Counted from the first letter of the stretch, positions 30,177 through 42,577 are shown. The stretch is 42,625 nucleotides of DNA from Deltaproteobacteria bacterium (GCA_004356615.1 SMWT01000159.1:1-42625); one strand, 5' to 3'. Notes: generated by a model from the letters alone, not told the origin. Numbers and translations are program-made.

Positions 30177-30404
30177 ATGGGCATTGAACCGATTCTATTT
30201 CTGCTTAGGCACACACCTTTTTGGTCAGTGCCTACTTTTATTATTGCCGGCCAATTTTCTTATATCTACTGGCTTAAAGGTTATCGCAAAATAGCGGCAA
30301 TTCTCGGCCTTTTAGTCTTAATTTCCTTTATTGTCACTTTATTTTATATTTGGGCCGGTGGGCCGGATAATGCGCCTCACGTTTTTTTAAAATTCATAAG
30401 ATAA
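30177..30404 (+). CDS. Small membrane protein (2 predicted TM segments), hypothetical
   Basis: 75-aa ORF starting 3 nt after the metK stop, with two hydrophobic stretches. No family recognised. Confidence 0.45.
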   Translation: MGIEPILFLLRHTPFWSVPTFIIAGQFSYIYWLKGYRKIAAILGLLVLISFIVTLFYIWAGGPDNAPHVFLKFIR

Positions 30405-30405
30405 T

Positions 30406-30435
30406 TTGACACCGAAAAAATAATTCAGCTACCAT
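30406..30435 (+). promoter_or_regulatory. Sigma-70-like promoter candidate TTGACA-N18-TACCAT
   Basis: Perfect -35 at 30406-30411 and TAnnnT at 30430-35. The ATG at 30443 would make the transcript nearly leaderless, which lowers my confidence. Confidence 0.3.
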
Positions 30436-30442
30436 TTTATAT

Positions 30443-31729
30443 ATGCTGGAAGATTACAATTTTCTACACCAAGGCCTTGAAGATCAAGCGAGTTCCATTT
30501 ACGTTGTTCTAAATGATTTCCACGCCAGTGGCATGATAAAAGAATCTTTGGAGCAGGCGTTTGCTTTAAATGTTTTTAAATTTGAAGACTCAAGCGTTTT
30601 TTGGCAAAACTTTAAAGCACCGAGAGGTCTTTTTCTACTTATTACCGAAGATAGCTTTGCCGGGATGGAGTTGATTGAAAAACTTAAAAGAAAGAATTTA
30701 TCTTTTAAAACGATTCTCGCTTCCGCTTCGCCAAGGGCGGGAGATCACCTATCGCTGCAAAAACCTATTTCCCACAATAGCTTAAAGGGTGTTGTGGGAA
30801 ATATTTTTGGGCTGACTGACAGGGCGGATATTAAAGAAAATTTTCTCGGTTTAGTGGGTGGCCCAGGACCGATGCAGGAGGTTTTCAATCTTATTAAAAA
30901 TAATTGCAGCGGCCCAAAACCTATTTTGATCACCGGCCCAAGAGGCTCTGGCAAAAGCTCCGTGGCCCAGGCAATCTTAAAAAACTTTGATCTATCCTCC
31001 TGGGAATACATTAACTGCAGCACTGCCACCCAAGAGGTGTTGGAAAATGAATTATTCGGCCCAGAGGATGGAAAGCTTGCCCGGGATGGAATGATCTTTT
31101 TAAAAGATATTGAAAAACTGCCCCTACTGCTTCAGGCAAAACTTTCAAAATTTTTAAAAAATGAACAGGGCCTGGTAAAACTTCTCGCCTCCACCAGTCG
31201 GGACCTAATTGATCTTGTAAGCTCAGGAGATTTCAGAAAAGACCTACTAGGTTTTTTTGGCCAAAAGATCGGCCTGCCTCCTCTCTTTGAACGAAAGGAG
31301 GACTTGCCTCTTTTAATTAAACATTTTGGTGAAAAGTATTCCCGAGTTCATGGGTGTGAAAGTGTGGAATTTGATGAGAGCAGTCTGGAAATTCTGGCAA
31401 ATTACGACTGGCCGGAAAATGTCTATGAGCTGGAAATCTTAATTGAAAAGCTGGTTCTTTTACACACGGGAAGTTTAATCACTCCCAGTCATTTAACCGA
31501 GAATTTTTTTAAAGGAGAGGTTTTCGGTAGCGTACCCTATTCACTGCCGGAAAAAGGTATCGATTTAAGAGGCCTGCTTCGAGATATTGAAGATTCTCTA
31601 ATCAAGCAGGCGCTGGAAAAGACCGGTGGAAATAAAAACCGTGCATCTAAGTTATTGCAAATAAACAGAACTACTCTGGTAGAAAAACTTAAGAAAAGAA
31701 AACGGGAATCAAATAATCAAGTAACCTAA
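30443..31729 (+). CDS. Fis-family EBP-like regulator: atypical receiver, degenerate sigma-54-type AAA+ module, Fis HTH
   Basis: Walker A GPRGSGKS. ELFGPEDGKLARDGMIFLKDIEKL has only 12 residues between ELFG and the Walker B position, against about 25 in PspF/NtrC, and no GAFTGA. Walker B is FLKD rather than FLDE. LPPLFERKEDL and WPENVYELE are retained. HTH: GGNKNRASKLLQINRTTL. Confidence 0.8.
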   Translation: MLEDYNFLHQGLEDQASSIYVVLNDFHASGMIKESLEQAFALNVFKFEDSSVFWQNFKAPRGLFLLITEDSFAGMELIEKLKRKNLSFKTILASASPRAGDHLSLQKPISHNSLKGVVGNIFGLTDRADIKENFLGLVGGPGPMQEVFNLIKNNCSGPKPILITGPRGSGKSSVAQAILKNFDLSSWEYINCSTATQEVLENELFGPEDGKLARDGMIFLKDIEKLPLLLQAKLSKFLKNEQGLVKLLASTSRDLIDLVSSGDFRKDLLGFFGQKIGLPPLFERKEDLPLLIKHFGEKYSRVHGCESVEFDESSLEILANYDWPENVYELEILIEKLVLLHTGSLITPSHLTENFFKGEVFGSVPYSLPEKGIDLRGLLRDIEDSLIKQALEKTGGNKNRASKLLQINRTTLVEKLKKRKRESNNQVT

Positions 31730-31892
31730 GGCCTTGTAAATATTTATCCTGTCAAAATCCCAACTGATAAAATTTTCCCCGTGAAAAATTTTCCTTTTAA
31801 AAAAATCAAAAGGTAGTAAAATTTAGACACATGGCAGCGATTTTAATAGGATGGCCATTAAACAGGTAATTTGAAACAGGAAGTTTCAACTC

Positions 31893-34535
31893 ATGTCACA
31901 AAAATGTAAGTTATTTTTGACATTTACCCTGGTTTTTTTTTCCCTTCAGGAAAATTTTGCGCTAGCTGAGCAGGTGCTGGTGCAAAAAAAGATGAAACGG
32001 AATTTAAGGTGGGATATTAATGTACCTAAAGATTCAATTGTTATTGAAAAGAAGAGGAATTTAGTAATTCTAAGGAGTATATCTCCTGTTATCTTTAATA
32101 AATTGAGGCAAGAAATTATTAAATTGCCTTTAAATAAGGAATACATCACCGGCATTAACATCAATGCCCCTATCCATAAGAACCAGACCCCAAGCATTGA
32201 AGTGAAGCTAAAGGGAAGCTTTATTGAAATTTTTAGCTTTTATAGGGAAAGGCAAAAGAAATTTATTTTGGATTTTTGGATTAATGAAGACAAGCTTTCG
32301 CTTACCAGTAAACCGGTAAAGGTTATTACCAAAAATTATAAGAAACCCCTAGCGAGAAAGATTGCCGCCATTGCCTCTCCTAAAAAGGTTAAAAAGGTGG
32401 CAAAAAAATCAAATGAAAAGTTTCGTGATTTCCGCTACGGTGCTTCTTTCATCTGGGATTATCCGGCCATCACTCTATCACCTCCAAAGGCGCTGAATTT
32501 AAAAAGGAAAACGCCAGATTTTTTCTATCCTATTAATGATCTTCCTTCCATAAAAGATGAAAAAGACGCTCATTTGCAGCTTTCCATCAATCTATATCGT
32601 AAAAAGAAATATGGATTGATGAAAAAATCAATTGATTTGTACCGTAAAAAATATGGGCCGGACTCGGAAGTCGATTTTAACGAATATCTTGAGGCCAATG
32701 CCTTTTTAAAACTTAACTTGCAAAAAGCAGAACCTGAATCCACCAAATACGCGTTAACTATTTTAAGAAGTATTTATAAGAGAACTAAGAAATATCCCCT
32801 TAAAAGAGCTATCTTAAAATATCTAACCGCCCTTTATCTCAGTGAAAAAAATTATATTAAGGCGGTGGAAACCGCCAAGCAACTCTACTTTTACAGTAAA
32901 CAATACTCCGATGTGGAGGTGAGCAGTTATGCCGCCAAGGCGCTTTTATATTTGGCCGGTGAGTTTTGGCAAAAAGAAAAAATAAAAAGTATTACCGATA
33001 ATTCAGAGTTCAACCAATTTTTTTCCGCCCAGGAACTTTTAGCAGTTAAGTTAGCGCTTTTGTTAAAGGATAACGATGCCTATGAGACGATAAAACTTTT
33101 TGAAAAAAATAAGAGATCTTTAATTGATCCTGTTCATGAGGTCATTTTATTTAATGTGGGGGAGGCCTACTTTCGGGAAGGTAAGTTTAAAAAATCTATC
33201 CGTATCTTTAAAAAGTTTATAAAGTTTTATTCTTTTCACAAAATGGCATCTCGGGCCCGTTTGCGAATAGCGCTTGGGAGTGATTTGCTGGGCAGGGATC
33301 CGGAAAAAACAATTGCCCTTTACAAGGATACCATCGATCACTCCGCGGATTTTAAGACTAGCTTAGAGGCGAGAATCAGATATGTAGGACTTCGCACCGT
33401 TAGAAAAAGAGACCTAGGTGGCGAGGATATTGAGACCAGGGCCTTTTTAAAAGTGAGAGGCGTTGATAATACTAATCTAACTCGTGATTTAAAAAGCATA
33501 TTATGGCTCACCAGGCTTCGAACATTTATTGTAGATAAGCATTACAACAAGGCATTGACCTATCTTGAGGCGATTCCCCTGCAATCCCTGCCACTAGGTA
33601 AAAGAAGAGTCTTTATGGCGGACGGGGCAGAAGTGATAAATGGCCTGATTAGAAAATATTTTAAGGAAGAAAAGTATAGAAAACTGCTTATGCTCTATGA
33701 AAAGCACAAAGAGGATTATGAGAAAAATACCTCTCCTGATCCGCTCATGAGCTATTTTGTGGGCAAGGCGCTGGTAAATCTTGGGCTTTATAAGATATTT
33801 GATCAGGTATATCAGGACTTTAAGGCCTTTGAAAATAAACCCAAAAGGACCTTTCCTTCATGGATTGAAAGATCTAAAGATTTTTACCCAGAGAAATTCC
33901 TCCTAGACCTTAGGATCACTAAAAACATCAAACTGGGAAATATTCAGGCAGTAAAAAAACTTATTGCCGAATATGAAAAAAAATATCCAGGAGATAACAA
34001 GGTCTATTTTTTTAAAGGGGTGATGGATTACGCTGAAAAGAAATATTCAAACGCCATAAAATATTTGGAGCAATACCTGGCGGGAGAAAATGATGAAAGG
34101 GGGCATTCCAGCGAGGATATCGCCACGCTTTTAAAATCCTATACGGATTCCCTCTATCAAAAAGGATTCTATAAAAAATTTAAAAGGGTTTCCAAGGCCT
34201 TGCTGGCGGATACCAAAAATAATGGGAAAAAAGATAAAAATATTTTGCAGGTCAAGGAATGGATCCAATACATAAATATTGAACTATTAGCGGGAGAGAA
34301 AAATCTTGGAGATCTAGAGTCCGCGGTGGCCTCTTTTTTTCTGGAATTTAAAGAATCCTCTTATCAGGAGAGGATCAAGTATGTTTTAGGCGTGGCCTAT
34401 GTAGATGAAAATCTAATGCAAAAGGGAAAAGATATATTTAACGAGTTAGTAGAAGGAGAGAACATTTCGAGCTACATAAAAGAGTTAGCAAGATCTGAGA
34501 TATCCTTAATAAATATAAAGAGTAAAACACTTTAG
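31893..34535 (+). CDS. Secreted 880-aa TPR-like repeat protein
   Basis: Signal peptide MSQKCKLFLTFTLVFFSLQENFALA. A beta-rich N-terminal module ends KFILDFW and is followed by a K-rich linker. The rest is a long helical, TPR-like region (e.g. GEAYFREGKFKKSIRIFKKF, GVMDYAEKKYSNAIKYLEQY). Confidence 0.65.
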   Translation: MSQKCKLFLTFTLVFFSLQENFALAEQVLVQKKMKRNLRWDINVPKDSIVIEKKRNLVILRSISPVIFNKLRQEIIKLPLNKEYITGININAPIHKNQTPSIEVKLKGSFIEIFSFYRERQKKFILDFWINEDKLSLTSKPVKVITKNYKKPLARKIAAIASPKKVKKVAKKSNEKFRDFRYGASFIWDYPAITLSPPKALNLKRKTPDFFYPINDLPSIKDEKDAHLQLSINLYRKKKYGLMKKSIDLYRKKYGPDSEVDFNEYLEANAFLKLNLQKAEPESTKYALTILRSIYKRTKKYPLKRAILKYLTALYLSEKNYIKAVETAKQLYFYSKQYSDVEVSSYAAKALLYLAGEFWQKEKIKSITDNSEFNQFFSAQELLAVKLALLLKDNDAYETIKLFEKNKRSLIDPVHEVILFNVGEAYFREGKFKKSIRIFKKFIKFYSFHKMASRARLRIALGSDLLGRDPEKTIALYKDTIDHSADFKTSLEARIRYVGLRTVRKRDLGGEDIETRAFLKVRGVDNTNLTRDLKSILWLTRLRTFIVDKHYNKALTYLEAIPLQSLPLGKRRVFMADGAEVINGLIRKYFKEEKYRKLLMLYEKHKEDYEKNTSPDPLMSYFVGKALVNLGLYKIFDQVYQDFKAFENKPKRTFPSWIERSKDFYPEKFLLDLRITKNIKLGNIQAVKKLIAEYEKKYPGDNKVYFFKGVMDYAEKKYSNAIKYLEQYLAGENDERGHSSEDIATLLKSYTDSLYQKGFYKKFKRVSKALLADTKNNGKKDKNILQVKEWIQYINIELLAGEKNLGDLESAVASFFLEFKESSYQERIKYVLGVAYVDENLMQKGKDIFNELVEGENISSYIKELARSEISLINIKSKTL

Positions 34536-34575
34536 TTTCTTGTTCTAGGATGGAACAGGAAAGACAGGAGGTCTA

Positions 34576-35514
34576 ATGGAAACTATTAATGTGGAATTGT
34601 TTGGTCGCGATCCTAAAATTGAAAAAACAATTTCAATGGCCAAAAATGTGGCCGTTACCAAGGCCACTATACTTATTGTTGGTGAAATTGGTGTCGGTAA
34701 AAGGTCATTGGGTAATCTCATTCATATGAATTCCAACCGCACTAATAATCCTTTGATTGTGGTGGATTGTGCAAAAGGTTCTAAAGAGGTTGAAAACGCC
34801 ATTTTAGGTTTTAGAGATGAAGAGACCGGACGCTTTACCAAGGGAGCACTGGAAGCGGCCAATGGTGGCACTGTAATCTTTGCTAGTATTGATGGGCTAG
34901 AGGATGAGTTTCAAAAGAGAATTCATAAAATTCTAGTGGATCTAGAAGATTATGACCTCGATGTCAGGATCATTGCTACCACCACTAAAAATCTTTCAAA
35001 ACTAGTGGGAGCAGGACGATTTTATCGTGGACTCTACACCCATATTTCGGGAACTGCTTTTTTTATGCCACCCCTTAGAGAGAGACCAGAAGACCTGGAA
35101 ATGCTAACCAAGTATTTTATCGGCAAGTACTGCGTAAATGAAACAGGAACCATGGAGATTAGTCCTCCGGCGATGGAGAAAATTTTAGGCCATTACTGGA
35201 CTCACAACCTAGCAGAGCTACAAACGGTAATTGAAAACTCCGTTAAAAACTCAGATCAGGCCACACTCTCTGAAAAAGATTTAGAAATTGGTGAGAAGAA
35301 GGCGGTTAGTCTGGTTAATGATGATGATAATATGGGTATTCGTCTCATGTCGTTAAAGGAAGCAGAAAAGCTCTTGATTCAAAAAGCGCTAATTCACACC
35401 AGCGAAAACCGAACCCAGGCGGCAAAGATATTAGGTGTTTCTATCAGAACTCTAAGAAATAAAATCAATGAGTATAGAAACAAGGGTTCGGCCTTTTTCA
35501 TCAACTTGAGGTAG
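34576..35514 (+). CDS. Fis-family EBP-like regulator without receiver domain, degenerate AAA+ module, Fis HTH
   Basis: Walker A GEIGVGKRS. The GAFTGA position reads GRFTKGA. Walker B reads FASID rather than FLDE. The pre-sensor-I segment is shortened (KILVDLEDYDLDVRIIATT). PPLRERPEDL is retained. HTH: NRTQAAKILGVSIRTLRNKI. The stop lies 2 nt before flgB. Confidence 0.8.
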   Translation: METINVELFGRDPKIEKTISMAKNVAVTKATILIVGEIGVGKRSLGNLIHMNSNRTNNPLIVVDCAKGSKEVENAILGFRDEETGRFTKGALEAANGGTVIFASIDGLEDEFQKRIHKILVDLEDYDLDVRIIATTTKNLSKLVGAGRFYRGLYTHISGTAFFMPPLRERPEDLEMLTKYFIGKYCVNETGTMEISPPAMEKILGHYWTHNLAELQTVIENSVKNSDQATLSEKDLEIGEKKAVSLVNDDDNMGIRLMSLKEAEKLLIQKALIHTSENRTQAAKILGVSIRTLRNKINEYRNKGSAFFINLR

Positions 35515-35516
35515 CG

Positions 35517-35924
35517 ATGAATATTGAAGATTCAACTTTAAAAGCATTGTCGACTTCTTTAAATCTCAGACAGATGAGACAAGAGATTATATCTGGCAAT
35601 ATAGCTAATGCAGAAACCCCCGGTTACAAGGCCAAACGGATTGATTTTGAAGAAGCACTCGCTCGCGCCCTCAATCTCGATGAACTTCAAAACCTAGATG
35701 TTGATGATCCGAGACACTTTGGCGTTGGAGGCGGAGGATTTAATAATCTGCAGGCCGAAGTTTACCAAGATCCCAACGGTGTGGTGAGTGAAGATGGAAA
35801 CACCGTAAATCGGGACGATGAAATGGTAAGGATGGCCGAGAACAAAATTTTATACGATGCCTCGGTCCAGTTGCTCAATAAAAAGTTAGGGCTTATGAAA
35901 TATGCCGTAGGCTCAGAGAGGTAA
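35517..35924 (+). CDS. flgB: Flagellar basal-body rod protein FlgB
   Basis: Contains NIANAETPGYKAKRIDFEEAL and the C-terminal DDEMVRMAENKILYDA motif. Confidence 0.92.
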   Translation: MNIEDSTLKALSTSLNLRQMRQEIISGNIANAETPGYKAKRIDFEEALARALNLDELQNLDVDDPRHFGVGGGGFNNLQAEVYQDPNGVVSEDGNTVNRDDEMVRMAENKILYDASVQLLNKKLGLMKYAVGSER

Positions 35925-35927
35925 TAG

Positions 35928-36365
35928 ATGGATTTGTTATCAAGTATGAAAATTAGTGCTTCAGGACTGGCCGCCAATCGGAAAAGAATGGCCACCATCT
36001 CCTCTAATATCGCCAATGCCCAGACCACCCGGACTGCCGAAGGTGGGCCTTATCGTAGAAAAGAAGTGGTCTACGGCGCAGAACCGGCGAGAAAATCCTT
36101 CAGTGAAATCTTAGAAGGGGAAATTGGGGAAAATGCTAAAAAGGTTCATGCAACTGAGGTTATCTCAACTGATCGACCGCCTATTTTTAAATATGAGCCC
36201 GGGCACCCTGATGCCAATGAGCAAGGTTATGTGGCCTATCCTAATATTAATGTAATGGAAGAGATGGCCAATATGATTTCCACCACAAGAAGTTATGAAG
36301 CAAATATCGCGGCCTTAAATACCGCAAAAGGAATGGCCCTAAAGGCCTTAGAGATCGGAAGATAA
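35928..36365 (+). CDS. flgC: Flagellar basal-body rod protein FlgC
   Basis: Contains SGLAANRKRMATISSNIANAQTT and YPNINVMEEMANMISTTRSYEANI. Confidence 0.95.
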   Translation: MDLLSSMKISASGLAANRKRMATISSNIANAQTTRTAEGGPYRRKEVVYGAEPARKSFSEILEGEIGENAKKVHATEVISTDRPPIFKYEPGHPDANEQGYVAYPNINVMEEMANMISTTRSYEANIAALNTAKGMALKALEIGR

Positions 36366-36385
36366 ACAAATAAGCGAGGTTTATA

Positions 36386-36730
36386 ATGTCTATTGAAACA
36401 AACTCAGGAATATCAAACATCATAAAAAACATGGATGCAAATGCATGGATTAAGAAGGCCAAGATTGACCCCACTAAAGGGTTTACAGAGCTTACGCTAA
36501 AAGAAGGTGAGCAAACCTTTGGCCAAGTTCTCGGGAGTTATATTGGCAAGGTCAATGCCCTGCAAAACAAGGCCAATACTGCCATTGAAAAGTTGGTGAC
36601 GGGAAAAAGTAAAAATATTCATGAAACCATGCTGGCAGTGGAAAAAGCAGAAATTGCTTTTAAAACCATGAACCAAATTAGACTTAAAGTGATTGATGCA
36701 TATAGAGAGATCATGAAAATGCAAGTGTAA
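36386..36730 (+). CDS. fliE: Flagellar hook-basal body complex protein FliE
   Basis: 114 aa. The C-terminus HETMLAVEKAEIAFKTMNQIRLKVIDAYREIMKMQV matches the FliE signature. Confidence 0.9.
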   Translation: MSIETNSGISNIIKNMDANAWIKKAKIDPTKGFTELTLKEGEQTFGQVLGSYIGKVNALQNKANTAIEKLVTGKSKNIHETMLAVEKAEIAFKTMNQIRLKVIDAYREIMKMQV

Positions 36731-36741
36731 GGGAGTAGGCG

Positions 36742-38427
36742 TTGCAAGAATTTATACAGAGAATAGTTTCCAACTTCACTGACTTTTTCTCCCGTTTGGA
36801 TAATTCACGGAAGGTGGGGGCAATCGTCACCGCCGGTTTTATCCTCGCTGGTATGATTGGGATTATCATCTGGGCCTCGCAAACCCGCTATGCTACACTT
36901 TATACCGATTTAAATTCAGAAGACGCTAAAAAGATCAGTATTTTGCTAGAAGAAAAGAAAGTATCCTATCAACTGGACAATGATGGAAAAACCATAAAAA
37001 TACCTAAAGACATGGTTGATTTGTGGCGGATCCAGATGGCCACTTTGGGAGTGAATTTTTCCGGCACTTTGGGATATGAGATCTTAGATAAACAAAGCTT
37101 TGGAACCACCAGCTTTGTACAAAAAATAAATCGAAAAAGGGCCTTAGAGGGTGAGTTAATTAAGACCATCATGTATATTCGCGGGATCAAACGCGCCCGG
37201 GTTCATTTATCCATCCCCGAATCAAGTCCCTTTGTAGTAGAGAATAAAGCACCTTCAGCATCGGTTGTGCTGGAGCTCGATCGAGGAGTAAGGCTTACTT
37301 CCGAGGAGATAACAGGAATTGGTTCATTGGTATCGGCGGCAGTTGCAGGCATGAGGCCGGAAAATGTAGTGATTTTAAATGATCGGGGCAAGAAGCTTTC
37401 TGAAAATATCGGCGATCGCATGACCGAATATACCGCCAATCGTATGGCCCTTGAGGCCAAGTTATCTCGCCAATACGAGGAAAAAATCGAAGAGATCCTA
37501 TCAAAGATTGTAGGCGAGGGAAAAATTGTCGCCAAAGTTTCCGTGTCGATGGATTTTACTGAATCCATTTCCACCAGAACCGAGTACGATGCAGAAAACC
37601 CCGCAGTGATTTCAGAAGTTAGGAACATACAAACCCTAGATGGAAAAAGGCCTTCGCCGCAAGGAATTCCCGGTGCTAGAAGTAATCTGCCAGGCGAGCT
37701 CCCCCAACCAGGTATTCCGGAAACCAGTAACAAGGTAAAAAAAGAACTTACTACCAGAAATTATCAAATTCCTTCCATCGTCACCAAGGAGAAAAGGCCT
37801 ACCGCCGGACTTTCCAAAATCAGTGTTGCGGTAATGATAGATGGTAGAAGGGTTCCTCAATTAGATCAAAATGGTAAACCAATCATGAAAAATGGCCAAC
37901 AGGTGTTAATCTATGAGGCCTGGTCGAAAAGTGATTTAGATAATTTTAGCGCCATTGTAAGCTCAACTTTAGGGCTGGTTAAAAAAAGAGGAGATGACCT
38001 CACTATTAAAAGTATGGAGTTTGTAAAAGAAGATATAGAAGCGGCCCAGGTAATGCTTAGAGAAAATGCCAATAGAGAACTGGTTAAAAATATTATTAAA
38101 TATTTGGCCATAGGTCTGGCCATCACTTTATTTTTCTTTTTTGTAGTTAAGCCATTTATTCAGTGGGTGACCGATAATACTGTTGAATCTATTGAAGATT
38201 TCCTACCTAAAACACTGGAGGAATTGGAAAAGGTACAAACCAGTCAGAAACTACCAGGACTTGAAGATGTCCTGCCGCAAATAGAAGAGAAGATAAATCC
38301 GCAAAAGATTGAAGGAAACCTCTTGAAAGAAAAGATTGTCTCCGAGATAGAAGCGAACCCGGCCAAAGCAGCACAGGTGATTCATGAGATGATTCATGCG
38401 GCCGAGTCGGATAAATCAATAGCCTAG
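36742..38427 (+). CDS. fliF: Flagellar MS-ring protein FliF
   Basis: 561 aa. The TTG start has GGGAG 6 nt upstream. It has an N-terminal TM helix, YscJ/FliF-type segments (LYTDLNSEDAKKISILLEEKKVSYQL, ARVHLSIPESSPF), a second TM helix and a C-terminal tail. Confidence 0.93.
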   Translation: MQEFIQRIVSNFTDFFSRLDNSRKVGAIVTAGFILAGMIGIIIWASQTRYATLYTDLNSEDAKKISILLEEKKVSYQLDNDGKTIKIPKDMVDLWRIQMATLGVNFSGTLGYEILDKQSFGTTSFVQKINRKRALEGELIKTIMYIRGIKRARVHLSIPESSPFVVENKAPSASVVLELDRGVRLTSEEITGIGSLVSAAVAGMRPENVVILNDRGKKLSENIGDRMTEYTANRMALEAKLSRQYEEKIEEILSKIVGEGKIVAKVSVSMDFTESISTRTEYDAENPAVISEVRNIQTLDGKRPSPQGIPGARSNLPGELPQPGIPETSNKVKKELTTRNYQIPSIVTKEKRPTAGLSKISVAVMIDGRRVPQLDQNGKPIMKNGQQVLIYEAWSKSDLDNFSAIVSSTLGLVKKRGDDLTIKSMEFVKEDIEAAQVMLRENANRELVKNIIKYLAIGLAITLFFFFVVKPFIQWVTDNTVESIEDFLPKTLEELEKVQTSQKLPGLEDVLPQIEEKINPQKIEGNLLKEKIVSEIEANPAKAAQVIHEMIHAAESDKSIA

Positions 38428-38435
38428 GGGCAGGC

Positions 38436-39257
38436 ATGGAAAAAAATCAATTGGAAATTAGAGATTTCGTTTTCAATCCCCTCTCTGGTAAAGGGCAGGG
38501 AGACGTAGAGACTGTGGAATTTTCCCCGCTTGTGCCAAATCATTTGGCACAAAAGGAAAGGCTGGAGGAACTAGATAGGGAAGAGAAAATTGCTAATGCT
38601 AAGGGGTTTAATATTTTAGACTTGGCCAGGGAGCAACAGGAGCGAAAAAATCATAGGGAGCAGGAAAGAAAAGAAAAGATTAAAAGTGAGGTTTTAGGCA
38701 GATTAAAGATCGTGGAAAAAGAGACCTTTGAAAAGGCACATGAAGAAGGACTTAAGGCCGGTAAGGAAGAAATCGCTGCTGAGATCAAAGTTAAGGCCGA
38801 GAAGCAGTTAAATATTTTAACAAACCTTGTTGATGAGCTCCTCACCCACAAGGAAGAATTATTTAAGGAGCAAAAGAATCAGCTTCTATTCATGGTTAAA
38901 AACTTAGTCCAATGGATAATTCTGCGAGAATTAAAAGATGATGGAAATTATCTAGAAACATTACTTGAAAAACTTGTATCCGAGTTACAAACCCAGACCA
39001 ATTTAAATATTCAAGTGAATAAAAATGATTTTGAGAAGATGCCGGAAGTTTTAAACTCCCTGCAGAAAAAAATTGGCGAGCTTAAAAATGTTAGGTTGGT
39101 AATAGACCATGATCTACCGGAAAAGGGAATGTTACTAGACTCGGATAATGGCATGATAAAAAGCTCCACGAGTGAACAATTTCACGCCCTAGATAAGCTG
39201 TTTGAAAAAATAGGTGTTTTTAATAAAGATTTTACAGATGAGGGAAATGAAAACTGA
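38436..39257 (+). CDS. fliH: Flagellar export-apparatus protein FliH
   Basis: 273 aa. It has an E/K-rich coiled-coil middle (REQERKEKIKSEVL...AHEEGLKAGKEE) and a C-terminal VRLVIDHDLPEKGMLLDSDNGMIKSS segment, as in FliH/YscL. It sits directly upstream of fliI. Confidence 0.8.
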   Translation: MEKNQLEIRDFVFNPLSGKGQGDVETVEFSPLVPNHLAQKERLEELDREEKIANAKGFNILDLAREQQERKNHREQERKEKIKSEVLGRLKIVEKETFEKAHEEGLKAGKEEIAAEIKVKAEKQLNILTNLVDELLTHKEELFKEQKNQLLFMVKNLVQWIILRELKDDGNYLETLLEKLVSELQTQTNLNIQVNKNDFEKMPEVLNSLQKKIGELKNVRLVIDHDLPEKGMLLDSDNGMIKSSTSEQFHALDKLFEKIGVFNKDFTDEGNEN

Positions 39258-40602
39258 TTTGGATTTGAACCCACTCAATAAGGCATTTGAAAATACTTTG
39301 CCTTTTCAAAAAATTGGAAAAATTCATTCCAATAAGGGGATGGTATATGAAATCAGCCTGCCCCAGGCGATTATCGGTAGTCGGGTGGAATTTGTTACAG
39401 ATTATGGCCCAAAGTGCTTCGGAGAAGTCATCGCCCTTAGGGGAAAAAAATGTCTGGCCATGCCCTATGAGGAAATATCCGGGCTCAATTCAGAAACAAA
39501 AGTATATTTGCGAGACTTAACTACAGAAATTCAAATCTCTGATTCTATGTTGGGAAGAGTACTGGATTTTCAGGGCCGGCCGCTAGATAACAAAGGGGAA
39601 CTGCTGGGGAGTTTTGAGACCAGGTCTATTTATGGCACCCCCATAAATCCTCTAGATCGTCCTCCTATCAATTCCGCCATAACAACGGGAATACACTCAA
39701 TTGATTTTTTTATGACTGCAGGACAGGGTCAAAGACTGGCCATTATGTCTGGCTCCGGTGTGGGTAAATCCGTACTCTTAGGCATGATGGCAAGATTTAC
39801 CAACGCTGATGTATCAGTGATCGCGCTAGTAGGTGAAAGGGGCCGTGAAGTTTTAGAATTTATTGAAAGGGATTTAGGCCCTGAGGGATTAAAAAGATCG
39901 GTGGTCGTTGTGGCAACTTCTGATTGTTCACCCCTAATTCGGATGAAGGCGGCCTATACTGCTACCACTATCGCCGAGTATTTTCGTGATAAAAACAATC
40001 ATGTTATGTTTATGATGGATTCGATAACTAGATTTGCTATGGCCAATAGAGAAATATCTCTTGCAGCAGGAGAACCTCCAGGCCAAAAGGGATACACCCC
40101 TACAGTATTTTCAAGATTACCTAAACTTCTAGAAAGAGCGGGAACGAAAAGAGGATCAGGAACCATTACTGGAATGTATACGGTACTAGTGGAAGGTGGG
40201 GATATGGATGAGCCTATCGCCGATGCCATTCGGGCGATAGCTGATGGCCATATAATTTTAACTAGAGAGTTGGCGCAAAAAAATTATTTTCCGGCAGTGG
40301 ATATTTTAAGCTCTATATCACGGGTGATGAACCAGGTGGTTAAAGCTGACCACAAGGCCTTGGCCTCAAGGCTGCGTGACCTTTTGGCCGCTTATAAGGA
40401 CAGCATTGATTTAATAAATGTCGGGGCCTACGTCAGAGGTGCCAATCCCAAAGTGGACCTAGCGATTGAGCTCATTGACTCATTTGAAACACTGATGAAG
40501 CAGGATTTAGAAGAGCGAACTTCGGTGAGCATTAGTGAATTGTATGATCAGTTGGAACAAATAATTTTAATCGCCGAGAAAAAACTGACGAGTAGTGAAT
40601 AG
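39238..40602 (+). CDS. fliI: Flagellum-specific ATPase FliI
   Basis: Walker A SGSGVGKS, Walker B VMFMMDSITRFA and the YFPAVDILSSISR motif. The start is ambiguous between ATG 39238, ATG 39247 and GTG 39214. Confidence 0.95.
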   Translation: MREMKTDLDLNPLNKAFENTLPFQKIGKIHSNKGMVYEISLPQAIIGSRVEFVTDYGPKCFGEVIALRGKKCLAMPYEEISGLNSETKVYLRDLTTEIQISDSMLGRVLDFQGRPLDNKGELLGSFETRSIYGTPINPLDRPPINSAITTGIHSIDFFMTAGQGQRLAIMSGSGVGKSVLLGMMARFTNADVSVIALVGERGREVLEFIERDLGPEGLKRSVVVVATSDCSPLIRMKAAYTATTIAEYFRDKNNHVMFMMDSITRFAMANREISLAAGEPPGQKGYTPTVFSRLPKLLERAGTKRGSGTITGMYTVLVEGGDMDEPIADAIRAIADGHIILTRELAQKNYFPAVDILSSISRVMNQVVKADHKALASRLRDLLAAYKDSIDLINVGAYVRGANPKVDLAIELIDSFETLMKQDLEERTSVSISELYDQLEQIILIAEKKLTSSE

Positions 40603-41049
40603 ATGAAAAAGTTTAAGTTTCGACTAGATACGGTTTTAAAATTAAGAGAATTTGAAGAGAAAAAGGCGAAGATTAATTTAGGGAAAGTGATAACAAAGAT
40701 GGAGTATATTAAAAGAGAAATTGAGAAACTTAATAAAGAGATAGGTATGGGATATAGCGAAATGCAGGAGCTTTTAAAAGAGACGGTGGATGGAAGAACC
40801 CTTCAGTTTTTCCCTGCTTACTTCGCCGGCAAGGAGGCGATGATTAAATCCAAAAAAACTGAGCTTTCAAACTTAAATGAAGAATTGAATTTTAGAAGGT
40901 TGGAGCTTAGAAAAGCGGAAGGTGAATTTAAAAGCATCGATAAATTAAAAGAAAAAAGTTTTGAGAAATTTAAAGATGAGATCTTTAAAAAAGAACAAAA
41001 TGATTTAGATGATTACACCATTATGAAATATGGGAGAAGTCATGAGTAA
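40603..41049 (+). CDS. fliJ: Flagellar export chaperone FliJ
   Basis: 148-aa coiled coil starting MKKFKFRLDTVLKLREFEEKKAK. It begins immediately after the fliI stop. Confidence 0.8.
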   Translation: MKKFKFRLDTVLKLREFEEKKAKINLGKVITKMEYIKREIEKLNKEIGMGYSEMQELLKETVDGRTLQFFPAYFAGKEAMIKSKKTELSNLNEELNFRRLELRKAEGEFKSIDKLKEKSFEKFKDEIFKKEQNDLDDYTIMKYGRSHE

Positions 41050-41572
41050 GTGGATGATAATTTTTGGCATTGTTAGTTTGAGCTTAACCGCTCAGGAAAA
41101 ACCCAAGACCTATACAGAAGAACAGTTTAGGGCCGCCTTGCGAAAAGAGATGAGAAAGGAAATGGAAAACCTGGGTTCTAAAAAACTTGTTAAGTACTTT
41201 AAGGGACTATTAGATAAAGAGGAAATGATTGAGGCGAAAAAGAACAAGCTAGCACAAAGAGAAAAAATACTTTCCATGTCGATTAAGCAGTTTGAAAAGA
41301 GAATTAAGCTTTTAACCGGAAAGCAAAATAAAATTATTGGCTGTATCGATGAAATCAAAAAAGGTGAGGAAAATCGCATAAAAAATATGGTGGAAATCAT
41401 TTCCAACATGAAGGCCGACAAAGCGGCCGCAGTTCTTACTGTTCAGGATCCAGACATCACCATAAAAATTTTAAGGGGCCTTGACCCACTTAAGGTCTCA
41501 AAATTATTCAATCAGATGGACAAGGAAATATCTGCCCGACTACAAAAACAGTTTTTGACTATGAAAAGATAG
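41042..41572 (+). CDS. YlxF/FlbB-like flagellar protein with MgtE_N-like (MotE-type) segment
   Basis: ATG 41042 has GGGAGAAG upstream. It has a signal/anchor MSKWMIIFGIVSLSLTA and a coiled coil. The segment KADKAAAVLTVQDPDITIKILRGLDPLKVSKLFNQM resembles MgtE_N. It sits between fliJ and fliK, as ylxF does in Bacillus. Confidence 0.6.
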   Translation: MSKWMIIFGIVSLSLTAQEKPKTYTEEQFRAALRKEMRKEMENLGSKKLVKYFKGLLDKEEMIEAKKNKLAQREKILSMSIKQFEKRIKLLTGKQNKIIGCIDEIKKGEENRIKNMVEIISNMKADKAAAVLTVQDPDITIKILRGLDPLKVSKLFNQMDKEISARLQKQFLTMKR

Positions 41573-41599: not shown

Positions 41600-42577
41600 A
41601 TGATTGCAAGTGGAATTTCAAATATTAACCCTGCAGAGATTAAACCAAATGGGGAGACCGTATCCCCGGTAGAAGAGGGTGGAGCTGACTTTGGCTCCTT
41701 TTTAGAGGAAATGCAAAAAAGAGGGATTGCCCAAATTCAATTAACCTTACTTCCTGGAGGAAAAGTAGTGGAGTCCACGGAAGAGGTTAAGGAACTTAAT
41801 CTTGATTTTAAAGAAGCACCCAAAGAACCACCCAAAGAACCCTTGAAAACAGAAGATGAAAATTTAAAAGCATTTAAAAATAAACCCTTAGAAGAGTTAA
41901 AGGGGGATAAAAAAACAGCAAAACTTGAATCTAGCGATTTATTTTTATCCCAAAGAGAAATCTCTAAAACTGCAGAAAAAAATGAGGGATTAAATTCTTT
42001 CAGTAAGATTTTTAATGTTAAAAAGGAAAAATTTGAAAAAGCGGAAGAGGGTAGTGTTCTTTCGCTACTCGATGCTAAAAGCGAACTGGGCGAAACGAAG
42101 GCACCAAAAACCGCCGAGAAGCTACAATTTAACAACACCAAACAGTTATTTAATTGGATATCTAAACTGATTGCCAAAAATACCATCACCAATGGCCAAC
42201 AGCTCAGCTTAACCTTAAGGGATGGGACTTTGGGGCAGTTTAGTATTATGGCCAAATCCTTAGGGCAAAATGGTGAGTTAAATATGGAGATCCTCGCTCA
42301 ATCAGAAGCGGGCCGAGATTTTTTTAAAGGCAATGAAGTTGCCTTAATGAAGGCGCTTGAATCTGCCGGTATTAAGGTTTCAGATTTTAAAGTAGGACTA
42401 GCAGGCAGTAATAATTCTTTGGCCAATGATATGGCCAGCTTAATGAGTGATAGTAAAGAGGCTGCAGCAGAGCGGTTTGAAGAAAATATGTTTCAGCGAG
42501 AGGAACTTGACCAGGACTCTCGCCGCCGAAAAAGAATTTGGGATGAAATGCTTGAAAATCGAAGAAGGGGGGCCTGA
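41600..42577 (+). CDS. fliK: Flagellar hook-length control protein FliK
   Basis: The N-terminal half is K/E/P-rich and looks disordered. The C-terminal Flg_hook-like domain reads QLSLTLRDGTLGQFSIMAKSLGQNGELNMEILAQSEAGRDFFKGNEVALMKALESAGIKV. Confidence 0.75.
   Translation: MIASGISNINPAEIKPNGETVSPVEEGGADFGSFLEEMQKRGIAQIQLTLLPGGKVVESTEEVKELNLDFKEAPKEPPKEPLKTEDENLKAFKNKPLEELKGDKKTAKLESSDLFLSQREISKTAEKNEGLNSFSKIFNVKKEKFEKAEEGSVLSLLDAKSELGETKAPKTAEKLQFNNTKQLFNWISKLIAKNTITNGQQLSLTLRDGTLGQFSIMAKSLGQNGELNMEILAQSEAGRDFFKGNEVALMKALESAGIKVSDFKVGLAGSNNSLANDMASLMSDSKEAAAERFEENMFQREELDQDSRRRKRIWDEMLENRRRGA

Follow-up and report, generated by a model that had tools for sequence, protein, structure and literature searches.

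What do two genes for degenerate bacterial enhancer-binding proteins (bEBPs), one on either side of a gene for a tetratricopeptide repeat (TPR) protein and both just ahead of flgB, contribute to a flagellar locus? The question is raised by contig SMWT01000159.1 (Deltaproteobacteria bacterium, GCA_004356615.1), which we analysed over its whole length of 42.6 kb and refer to as the window; the two genes, EBP1 and EBP2, the TPR gene and the flagellar genes all lie on its + strand. We consider it probable, though well short of certain, that both genes encode bEBP derivatives that now act as ordinary sequence-specific DNA-binding regulators using neither ATP hydrolysis nor sigma-54, and that they reached this state by different routes. 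A preliminary description drawn from the DNA alone had proposed that both proteins lost ATP-driven sigma-54 remodelling and that they might act as a heteromeric pair; the evidence presented below agrees with the first proposal and speaks against an obligate form of the second.

The losses were assessed with phmmer alignments against ZraR, FleQ and NtrC-family structures and with MAFFT alignments in which ZraR and an NtrC-family protein of Aquifex served for reference. Both proteins match Pfam Sigma54_activat, AAA_lid_14 and HTH_8, with low Sigma54_activat scores of 63.5 and 81.5 bits compared to 240 bits in canonical orthologs. AlphaFold models examined with Foldseek display the bEBP AAA+ fold in both proteins, with predicted local distance difference test (pLDDT) values of 80-92 across the AAA+ core, and superpose on PspF, NtrC1, FlrC, FleQ, NtrX and VpsR with a TM-score of about 0.8 (target-normalised). 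The missing loops and motifs, originally read from a hand alignment, are upheld by three independent alignments and by the AlphaFold models.

In EBP1, the phmmer and MAFFT alignments place a 13-residue gap at the L1/GAFTGA hairpin (ELFGPEDG-------------KLARDGMIFLKDIEKLP), and FLKDI stands for FLDEI, confirming the reported deletion and the exchange of the Walker B DE for KD. Further along, FRKDLLGFF is found for FRxDLYYRL and LFER for LRER. In EBP2, the alignment reads GFRDEETGRFT------KGALEAANGGTVIFASIDGLE, where GFRDEETGRFT-KG stands for GHEKGAFTGAxxxxxG: a 3-residue RDE insertion followed by a 6-residue deletion makes the loop about 3 residues shorter on balance. The absence of GAFTGA from EBP2 and the presence of FASID for FLDEI are as first described, while the proposed equivalence of GRFT and GAFT depends on the aligner, since MAFFT sets GRFT on GAFT and HMMER sets EETG on AFTG; the hexapeptide is absent in both. 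The Thr position of this loop varies within the EBP2 family. IFASID occupies the FLDEIG position, most family members having AN at the Walker B DE, and the Walker B strand of the AlphaFold model spans T99-A103 (TVIFA). The pre-sensor-I loop (L2) is shortened by 11 residues in EBP1 and by 8 in EBP2, within the range proposed earlier. The second arginine of the FRxDLyyRL segment is indeed lost, with the amendment that in EBP2 (GRFYRGLYTHI) both arginines are displaced. Walker A, the lid and the Fis helix-turn-helix (HTH) are present in both proteins.

The alignments and the fold thus support the view that EBP1 and EBP2 are devoid of every element required for ATP-driven sigma-54 remodelling, namely the L1 GAFTGA, L2, the Walker B DE and the arginine finger. 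Each has an AAA+ module of the Sigma54_activat type with lid and Fis HTH, and neither shows GAFTGA, GAYTGA or GSFTGA at the L1 tip, nor the Walker B hhhhDE and trans arginine finger of canonical sigma-54 activators. A bEBP scaffold that lacks the sigma-54 contact motif and keeps its DNA-binding domain is the hallmark of sigma-54-independent derivatives, and it is into this class, not that of the canonical activators, that the two sequences fit.

EBP2 belongs to a family found in about 50 Bacteriovoracaceae genomes and in Peredibacter, including Peredibacter starrii WP_321394656.1, with identities among the Bacteriovoracaceae genomes of 52-92%, mostly 55-70%. At 50% clustering the family is reduced to 4-5 representatives scoring 339-264 bits, and generic EBPs score at most 200 bits. 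The replacement motifs are themselves conserved (ILG[HFY]RDEE[ST]GRFx-KGxLExANxGTVVFANIDGLE, LxDYDxDxR and GRFYRGLY). Invariant positions in 48 aligned clusters include K42, R80, F87, D125, Y126, D129, R131, F149-G152, R168 and R170, together with most of residues 254-301 in the Fis HTH region; the family invariants include the Walker A lysine and the PLRER arginines. Compared to L001 (QNFX01000026.1), the nearest genome record, the ratio of nonsynonymous to synonymous substitution rates (dN/dS) comes to about 0.03 for EBP2, below that of every other gene of the locus, a value that is approximate because the synonymous rate is near saturation; neighbouring genes give 0.05-0.14. Since the replacement motifs are conserved and the dN/dS is the lowest, EBP2 appears to be a working protein of an old family and not a decayed one. 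Its changes, as far as the sequences tell, are ancestral and conserved across this whole set of genomes.

EBP1 has a different history. The syntenic gene nearly everywhere else encodes a canonical NtrC-type response regulator of 500-550 residues with receiver (REC), AAA+ and HTH domains, in which GPSGTGKE, G[AS]FTGA, FLDEIGDMP and FREDLYYRLNV are intact and Sigma54_activat scores 240 bits. In a collection of 5.8 billion sequences, the reduced form (427-434 residues) was found in only four clusters, P0121-P0124, which are 62-75% identical to EBP1 of the window; the L1 loss and the Walker B change are conserved in all of them, as are KDI(E/D)KLP and a near-identical HTH. The receiver-like N-terminus, whose phospho-acceptor had been left unclear, is a remnant with five strands and four helices that holds Glu at the phospho-acceptor Asp position (ITEDSF compared to ITDISF in orthologs). 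Three of the four reduced members share this exchange, and L001/P0124 retains Asp. The Thr is lost and the Lys-Pro retained; 5- and 9-residue deletions remove helix alpha4, which is absent from the AlphaFold model, and the inter-domain linker is gone. Pfam Response_reg has no match in EBP1, compared to 40-51 bits in orthologs, and the set of features that defines an NtrC-family receiver (phospho-acceptor Asp, Thr/Ser, Lys and the alpha4-beta5-alpha5 face) is incomplete. Judging from these features, EBP1 is an ortholog, pared down specifically in this lineage, of a canonical REC-AAA+-HTH activator that depends on phosphorylation.

The reduction has gone further in other lineages. In L019 (3620-4609) the gene encodes a REC-less, degenerate AAA+-HTH form of 329 residues, and in L034 (6440-6796), L043 (6567-6989) and L045 (4018-4266) only 82-140 residues are left, in which the N-terminal DL-x-FLH motif is joined in frame to the Fis HTH. 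Both of these parts are also retained by EBP1 of the window. Because the remnants keep the HTH, DNA binding is indicated as the part of EBP1 under lasting selection. EBP1 is the fastest-evolving gene of the locus (63% identity to L001, dN/dS 0.17), a rate that indicates constraint relaxed relative to the neighbouring genes, yet still purifying selection.

Derivatives of this kind are already established: GAFTGA-less bEBP relatives at sigma-70 promoters include VpsR and members of the NtrC/NtrX group. In VpsR the residues that bind sigma-54 and hydrolyse ATP are missing; it activates a sigma-70 promoter and needs c-di-GMP (PMC6158489). It is among the Foldseek structural matches and shares the bEBP fold with HTH and the loss of the sigma-54-contact and hydrolysis residues, but it retains a receiver and controls biofilm genes, whereas EBP2 has no N-terminal domain and has L1 and L2 replaced by conserved acidic motifs. 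In the NtrC proteins of Rhodobacter capsulatus and Caulobacter, natural L1 deletions remove GAFTGA and the promoters served are of the sigma-70 type, and in NtrX the motif is shortened (10.1101/2023.06.06.543975). NtrX is the top structural match of EBP1. In these proteins phosphorylation control persists, as for the most part does Walker B, and the NtrC of Caulobacter still depends on binding and hydrolysing ATP; EBP1 differs in that its losses extend to the receiver switch, Walker B and the arginine finger. TyrR and DhaR of E. coli are EBP-family regulators that control sigma-70 promoters from palindromic boxes lying close to the promoter or extending into it. The best NCBIfam match of EBP2 is to the DhaR model (167 bits, far under its cutoff), the threshold of the TyrR model not being reached either, and TyrR and DhaR differ in their sensory domains (ACT/PAS and GAF/PAS) and metabolic regulons. 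PexR was considered as a further GAFTGA-less precedent and rejected, as it is a sigma-54-dependent activator.

Closer in context are FleQ/FlrA, FlrC/FleR and FlbD, which share the flagellar setting and the AAA+ plus Fis HTH architecture. In all of these GAFTGA and the ATPase are intact and the promoters served are sigma-54-dependent, which the two proteins of the window do not match; the NCBIfam FlbD model reaches 166 bits, well below the 750-bit cutoffs of the flagellar EBP models. EBP2 is nevertheless annotated as FlrC by JGI, and a Peredibacter paper speaks of FlrA (PMC13147790). By the sequence evidence, the public labels 'sigma-54-dependent regulator', 'FlrC' and 'FlrA' appear misleading for EBP2.

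The promoters of the locus were examined next to the proteins. The reported absence of a -24/-12 promoter upstream of these genes was borne out by a scan of the window: TGGCAC-N5-TTGCW with at most one mismatch occurs neither in its 42.6 kb nor in L001, and over the 450 nt that precede EBP2 no -24/-12 score rises above background. Upstream of the TPR gene, a 33-locus alignment of the EBP1-TPR intergenic region gives the 80% consensus AAAA....CC.....G.AAAATTTTCCTTT...GTA.AAT, and this promoter/operator block is conserved irrespective of the state of EBP1. It contains palindromes of the GGAAAA-N-TTTTCC type about 18 bp apart, and a -10 TAnAAT in a conserved region where GG-N10-GC is not found. 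By our placement, the 13-nt palindrome would be centred at about -41 from the -10-like element and the upstream site at about -59. This predicted geometry is that of a sigma-70 promoter whose -35 is weak and which would depend on, or be blocked by, a dimeric factor. Elsewhere in the window, GAAAAATTTTCC-like sites fall within genes and are as frequent as chance would give.

The preliminary description had taken EBP2 for the first gene of the flagellar operon. With a TPR-EBP2 spacer of 40 nt that holds no terminator and a promoter-like region upstream of TPR, the operon probably starts upstream of the TPR gene, which would make TPR its first gene and EBP2 its second. EBP1 has a predicted sigma-70-like promoter of its own, and across many loci the arrangement TTGACAC-N15-16-GCTAnnATTTT is seen again ahead of EBP1 orthologs. 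As only 7 nt separate the end of the -10 from the ATG, in L001 as in the window, the EBP1 mRNA may be leaderless there; orthologs elsewhere have leaders of 25-45 nt.

A second layer of control is suggested by the leaders of EBP2 and TPR. The TPR-EBP2 spacer holds GACAGGAGGTC(A/T)AATG, and of 51 Bacteriovoracaceae loci about 47 have the 11-mer GACAGGAGGTC unaltered, the others being off by one base or an insertion. About 10 nt upstream of it lies a hairpin whose stem sequence varies by genome and whose loop retains AGGA(N). When 37 loci were realigned with a covariance model (R1), a fit that somewhat favours structure, 91.6% of the cells were paired, six of six pairs had changes on both sides, and 64 compensatory cells were counted compared to 19 +/- 4 in shuffles, none of 500 shuffles reaching 64; slid controls gave 41-60% pairing. 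The element of the window scores 36.6 bits with this model. GGA is found within the loop in 33 of the 37 sequences, and in the window it lies 19 nt from the GGA of the Shine-Dalgarno element. The TPR leader is built alike: of 33 TPR leaders, 23 hold a hairpin with a GGA pentaloop compared to 5.6 +/- 2.2 in shuffles, the leader of the window having a larger loop and so falling outside the strict pentaloop definition, and both genes have invariant ACAGGA(A/G)G Shine-Dalgarno elements. No Rfam family was found anywhere in the window, and none matches the leader element. Six loci have additional copies of GACAGGAGGTC with one mismatch, three lying downstream of EBP2 at a distance of about 10.5-10.9 kb; these were set aside as unrelated chance matches.

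A GGA in a hairpin loop and a second one on the Shine-Dalgarno element, 10-60 nt apart, is the arrangement of CsrA/RsmA leaders, and the TPR and EBP2 leaders look like putative CsrA targets. CsrA is present and functional in Bdellovibrionota and recognises GGA hairpin loops (PMC13443453). The likeness extends to known CsrA targets, the flagellin hag/flaA leaders, the shared features being a loop GGA and, about 19 nt downstream, a Shine-Dalgarno GGA in a flagellar setting; those leaders serve flagellin, however, while the leaders here serve a regulator and a TPR protein, with CsrA as the presumed binder. A 36%-identical, non-flagellar relative of EBP2 (L054, 5988-6003) still has GACAAGGAGGTCTAATG, so the leader element travels with the EBP2 gene and not with the flagellar context.

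These observations can be combined into a working model. EBP2, which retains the Walker A lysine, the sensor II arginines and a near-invariant HTH, would bind nucleotide without turning it over, its AAA+ body serving oligomerisation or ligand sensing, and would act at sigma-70-type promoters of flagellar genes in the way of VpsR, TyrR, NtrX and the Rhodobacter and Caulobacter NtrC proteins. The locus is probably transcribed from the conserved sigma-70-like promoter upstream of TPR, whose weak -35 is overlapped by the 13-nt palindrome, and the HTH of EBP1 or EBP2 would bind the palindromes. Translation of TPR and EBP2 would additionally be gated by the GGA-loop hairpins and ACAGGA(A/G)G elements, possibly through CsrA. 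We infer that both proteins are independent of sigma-54 in vivo. A pattern search for the RpoN box, confined to the six frames of the window, itself a whole contig, and of 53 loci, had no hit.

Several points weigh against this model. Sigma-54 is reported for Peredibacter and for Bdellovibrio HD100 (PMC13147790), and since most relatives also keep a canonical EBP1, sigma-54 still operates in the family. The MAFFT pairing of GRFT with GAFT means that a conserved Phe of EBP2 may sit near the old contact position. With the Walker B Asp changed to Ala, it is uncertain that EBP2 binds even Mg-ATP. The palindromes could be bound by another transcription factor, and csrA was not found by a pattern search in six frames of the window and the 53 loci. 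Finally, the 36%-identical relative, with the same HTH and the same leader, is not beside flagellar genes, and the role of the EBP2 family may reach beyond flagella.

The proposed heteromeric pair bears on the first alternative. EBP1 and EBP2 do not form a matched pair, given that the EBP2 changes are ancestral and those of EBP1 are limited to the four-cluster clade, and an obligate heteromer of the two AAA+ domains is unlikely because EBP2 and the operon are unchanged in L019, L034, L043 and L045, where EBP1 has been eroded, down to an HTH-only ORF in the last three. A looser association, in which EBP2, and in this clade EBP1 too, is a non-catalytic subunit of the sigma-54 pathway that tunes or poisons a canonical EBP in mixed rings, as a FleQ/FleT-like or dominant-negative partner with feedback on flagellar class II expression, seems to us unlikely, even though the genes are neighbours in about 45 genomes, the AAA+ core and lid are retained and EBP1 is a live GAFTGA activator in most relatives. 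In Rhodobacter sphaeroides, the EBP paralogs FleQ and FleT cooperate in flagellar control, FleT lacking a DNA-binding domain and the pair being catalytically active with sigma-54. Here, by contrast, both proteins have HTHs, which differ from each other and are each strongly conserved, invariantly so in EBP2; both partners are dead in the window, and EBP2 persists where the EBP1 AAA+ domain is wholly lost.

A possible sigma-54 site upstream of EBP2 in three loci would also suit mixed rings. A perfect TGGCAC-N5-TTGCT lies about 175-190 nt upstream of EBP2 in L021 (5189-5204), L024 (9809-9824) and L026 (9809-9824), all of one freshwater/groundwater clade. It falls inside the 3' end of the TPR gene, on the codons of a conserved peptide, MALSLL, from which it may simply result, unless it serves as an internal sigma-54 promoter. 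We do not count it as evidence for a sigma-54 promoter of the operon and retain it as a bare possibility, since it represents one evolutionary event and, by our estimate, about 0.6 perfect chance matches are expected in 1.85 Mb.

It is also conceivable, and in our view quite improbable, that the AAA+ domain of EBP2 has turned into a sensor of a small molecule, c-di-GMP for instance, by analogy with FleQ and VpsR, and that this ligand, not ATP, switches the DNA-bound conformation. VpsR and FleQ are among the structural matches, VpsR being itself a GAFTGA-less, ATPase-dead bEBP that requires c-di-GMP, and the Walker A pocket of EBP2 is conserved despite the lost catalysis. The positions after Walker A, which we take to be those of the c-di-GMP-binding Arg/Asn of FleQ, are however variable in the EBP2 family (consensus GKRTLxxxIH), and a FleQ-type c-di-GMP site in EBP2 was rejected for this reason.

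That both proteins are still sigma-54 activators, working through non-canonical loops at promoters that were missed, is very unlikely. The L1 hairpin of EBP2 has a conserved G-R/K-F and a consensus scan can overlook divergent -24/-12 elements, but no way is known in which ATP could be hydrolysed once the Walker B Asp/Glu and the arginine finger are gone, EBP1 has no L1, the GAFTGA Thr is not conserved in EBP2, and the conserved upstream region has the -10 TAnAAT and lacks GG-N10-GC. The least tenable proposal, that one or both genes are functionless, decaying relics with EBP1 in particular heading for loss, would account for the fast evolution of EBP1 and its deeper domain losses elsewhere, and founders on intact ORFs with identical replacement motifs in the four clade members, on dN/dS values well below 1 with EBP2 the most constrained gene of the locus, and on the in-frame motif and HTH of even the smallest remnants.

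If the two proteins are DNA-binding bEBP derivatives as we favour, what is new compared to VpsR and NtrC/NtrX is a family without sensory domain, with L1 and L2 rebuilt as conserved acidic motifs, that heads the flgB cluster across a predatory family, along with a graded erosion series of the neighbouring activator, a conserved operator pair and CsrA-type leaders. The series runs from the canonical AAA+ activator through dead AAA+ and REC-less forms to an HTH-only one, a natural passage to a plain transcription factor beside a stable dead paralog. Models of flagellar control in Bdellovibrio-like predators that follow the sigma-54 cascades of Vibrio and Pseudomonas would then need revision. A bolder proposal, on which we would place only tentative weight, is that the EBP2 family represents an unrecognised kind of flagellar master or checkpoint regulator in predatory Bacteriovoracia, the acidic tips (RDEE-S/T-G and DYDxD) into which both former sigma-54-contact loops were remade engaging a new partner, a CsrA (FliW) switch on its leader coupling synthesis to assembly, and the erosion of EBP1 recording a rewiring from sigma-54 to sigma-70. 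Candidate partners of the tips would in that case be the sigma-70 or sigma-28 holoenzyme or an assembly factor. The palindromic operators and GGA-hairpin leaders provide defined targets for experiments in relatives that can be cultured, such as Halobacteriovorax, Bacteriovorax and Peredibacter.

Table 1. Coordinates of genes, protein segments and predicted regulatory elements in the window.
Feature	Position	Strand	Length	Remarks
EBP1 promoter, predicted	30406-30435	+		sigma-70-like; TTGACA-18-TACCAT, 10/12 consensus matches
EBP1	30443-31729	+	428 aa	degenerate receiver (~15-125), dead AAA+ (~135-350), intact Fis HTH (~375-420)
EBP1 segment ELFGPEDGKLARDGMIFLKDIEKL	31049-31120	+		L1/GAFTGA hairpin (13 aa) deleted; Walker B DE to KD
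TPR promoter/operator block, predicted	31751-31822	+		GTCAAAA at 31751-31757; -10-like TAAAAT at 31817-31822
Operator-like site 1 GATAAAATTTTCCC	31766-31779	+		imperfect palindrome
Near-palindrome GAAAAATTTTCC	31783-31794	+		(G)GAAAAATTTTCC, then TTT; GTAnAAT ~20 nt later
TPR leader hairpin	31831-31858	+		ATGGC/GCCAT, GGA in loop; same design as EBP2 leader
TPR Shine-Dalgarno hairpin	31873-31887	+		GAAAC-AGGAA-GTTTC; invariant in alignment
TPR gene	31893-34535	+	880 aa	
EBP2 leader hairpin	34539-34545 / 34553-34559	+		stem CTTGTTC/GAACAGG; loop TAGGATG (34546-34552)
EBP2 Shine-Dalgarno element GACAGGAGGTC	34563-34573	+		before ATG at 34576; whole element 34539-34578
EBP2	34576-35514	+	312 aa	AAA+ plus Fis HTH, without sensory domain
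EBP2 segment ILGFRDEETGRFTKGALEAANGGTVIFASIDGL	34801-34899	+		L1 hairpin remodelled, acidic tip; Walker B DE to AS
flgB	35517-35924	+		ORF call
flgB, flgC, fliE, fliF, fliH, fliI, fliJ	35517-41049	+		downstream flagellar genes

The ORFs are as previously called, with 2 nt between the EBP2 stop and flgB (Table 1). The nearest relatives of the window proteins are all Bacteriovoracaceae (phylum Bdellovibrionota), to which the contig is assigned as that of an uncultured member, and the gene order mpl...metK-small ORF-EBP1-TPR-EBP2-flgB-flgC-fliE-fliF is kept in about 45 loci of this family. The window sequence itself occurs solely in DNA metagenomes from the subsurface and marine sediment. L001, whose EBP2 is 91% identical, is labelled 'Epsilonproteobacteria bacterium'; because its gene order and protein similarities are of the Bacteriovoracaceae type, this label is probably wrong and due to a binning error.

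The TPR gene always lies between EBP1 and EBP2. Its product is a putative secreted protein: the N-terminus looks like a signal peptide, and after it come a beta-rich N-domain, a Lys-rich linker and an extended stretch of TPRs; the TPR domain matches are weak, and a sequence search of the PDB returned only designed consensus TPRs. The architecture resembles that described for the Campylobacter motor spoke PflA, which comprises a periplasmic N-terminal beta-sandwich, a linker and a long TPR superhelix and has been speculated for Bdellovibrio (PMC12222027), and by this analogy the protein may be a PflA-like scaffold of the flagellar motor.

Between metK and EBP1, most loci have a small ORF (75 residues in the window, 30177-30404) with two hydrophobic segments and the motif RHTPFW...GGP, for which no Pfam family was found. 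In the flagellar cluster, fliF directly adjoins fliH (36742-39257), which is unusual for a fliE-fliJ cluster; fliG was found neither between them nor elsewhere in the window. After fliJ, an ORF of 180 residues (41030-41572) has a weak match to MgtE_N, which is FliG-related, and the ORF that follows it (41600-42577) is weakly FliK-like.

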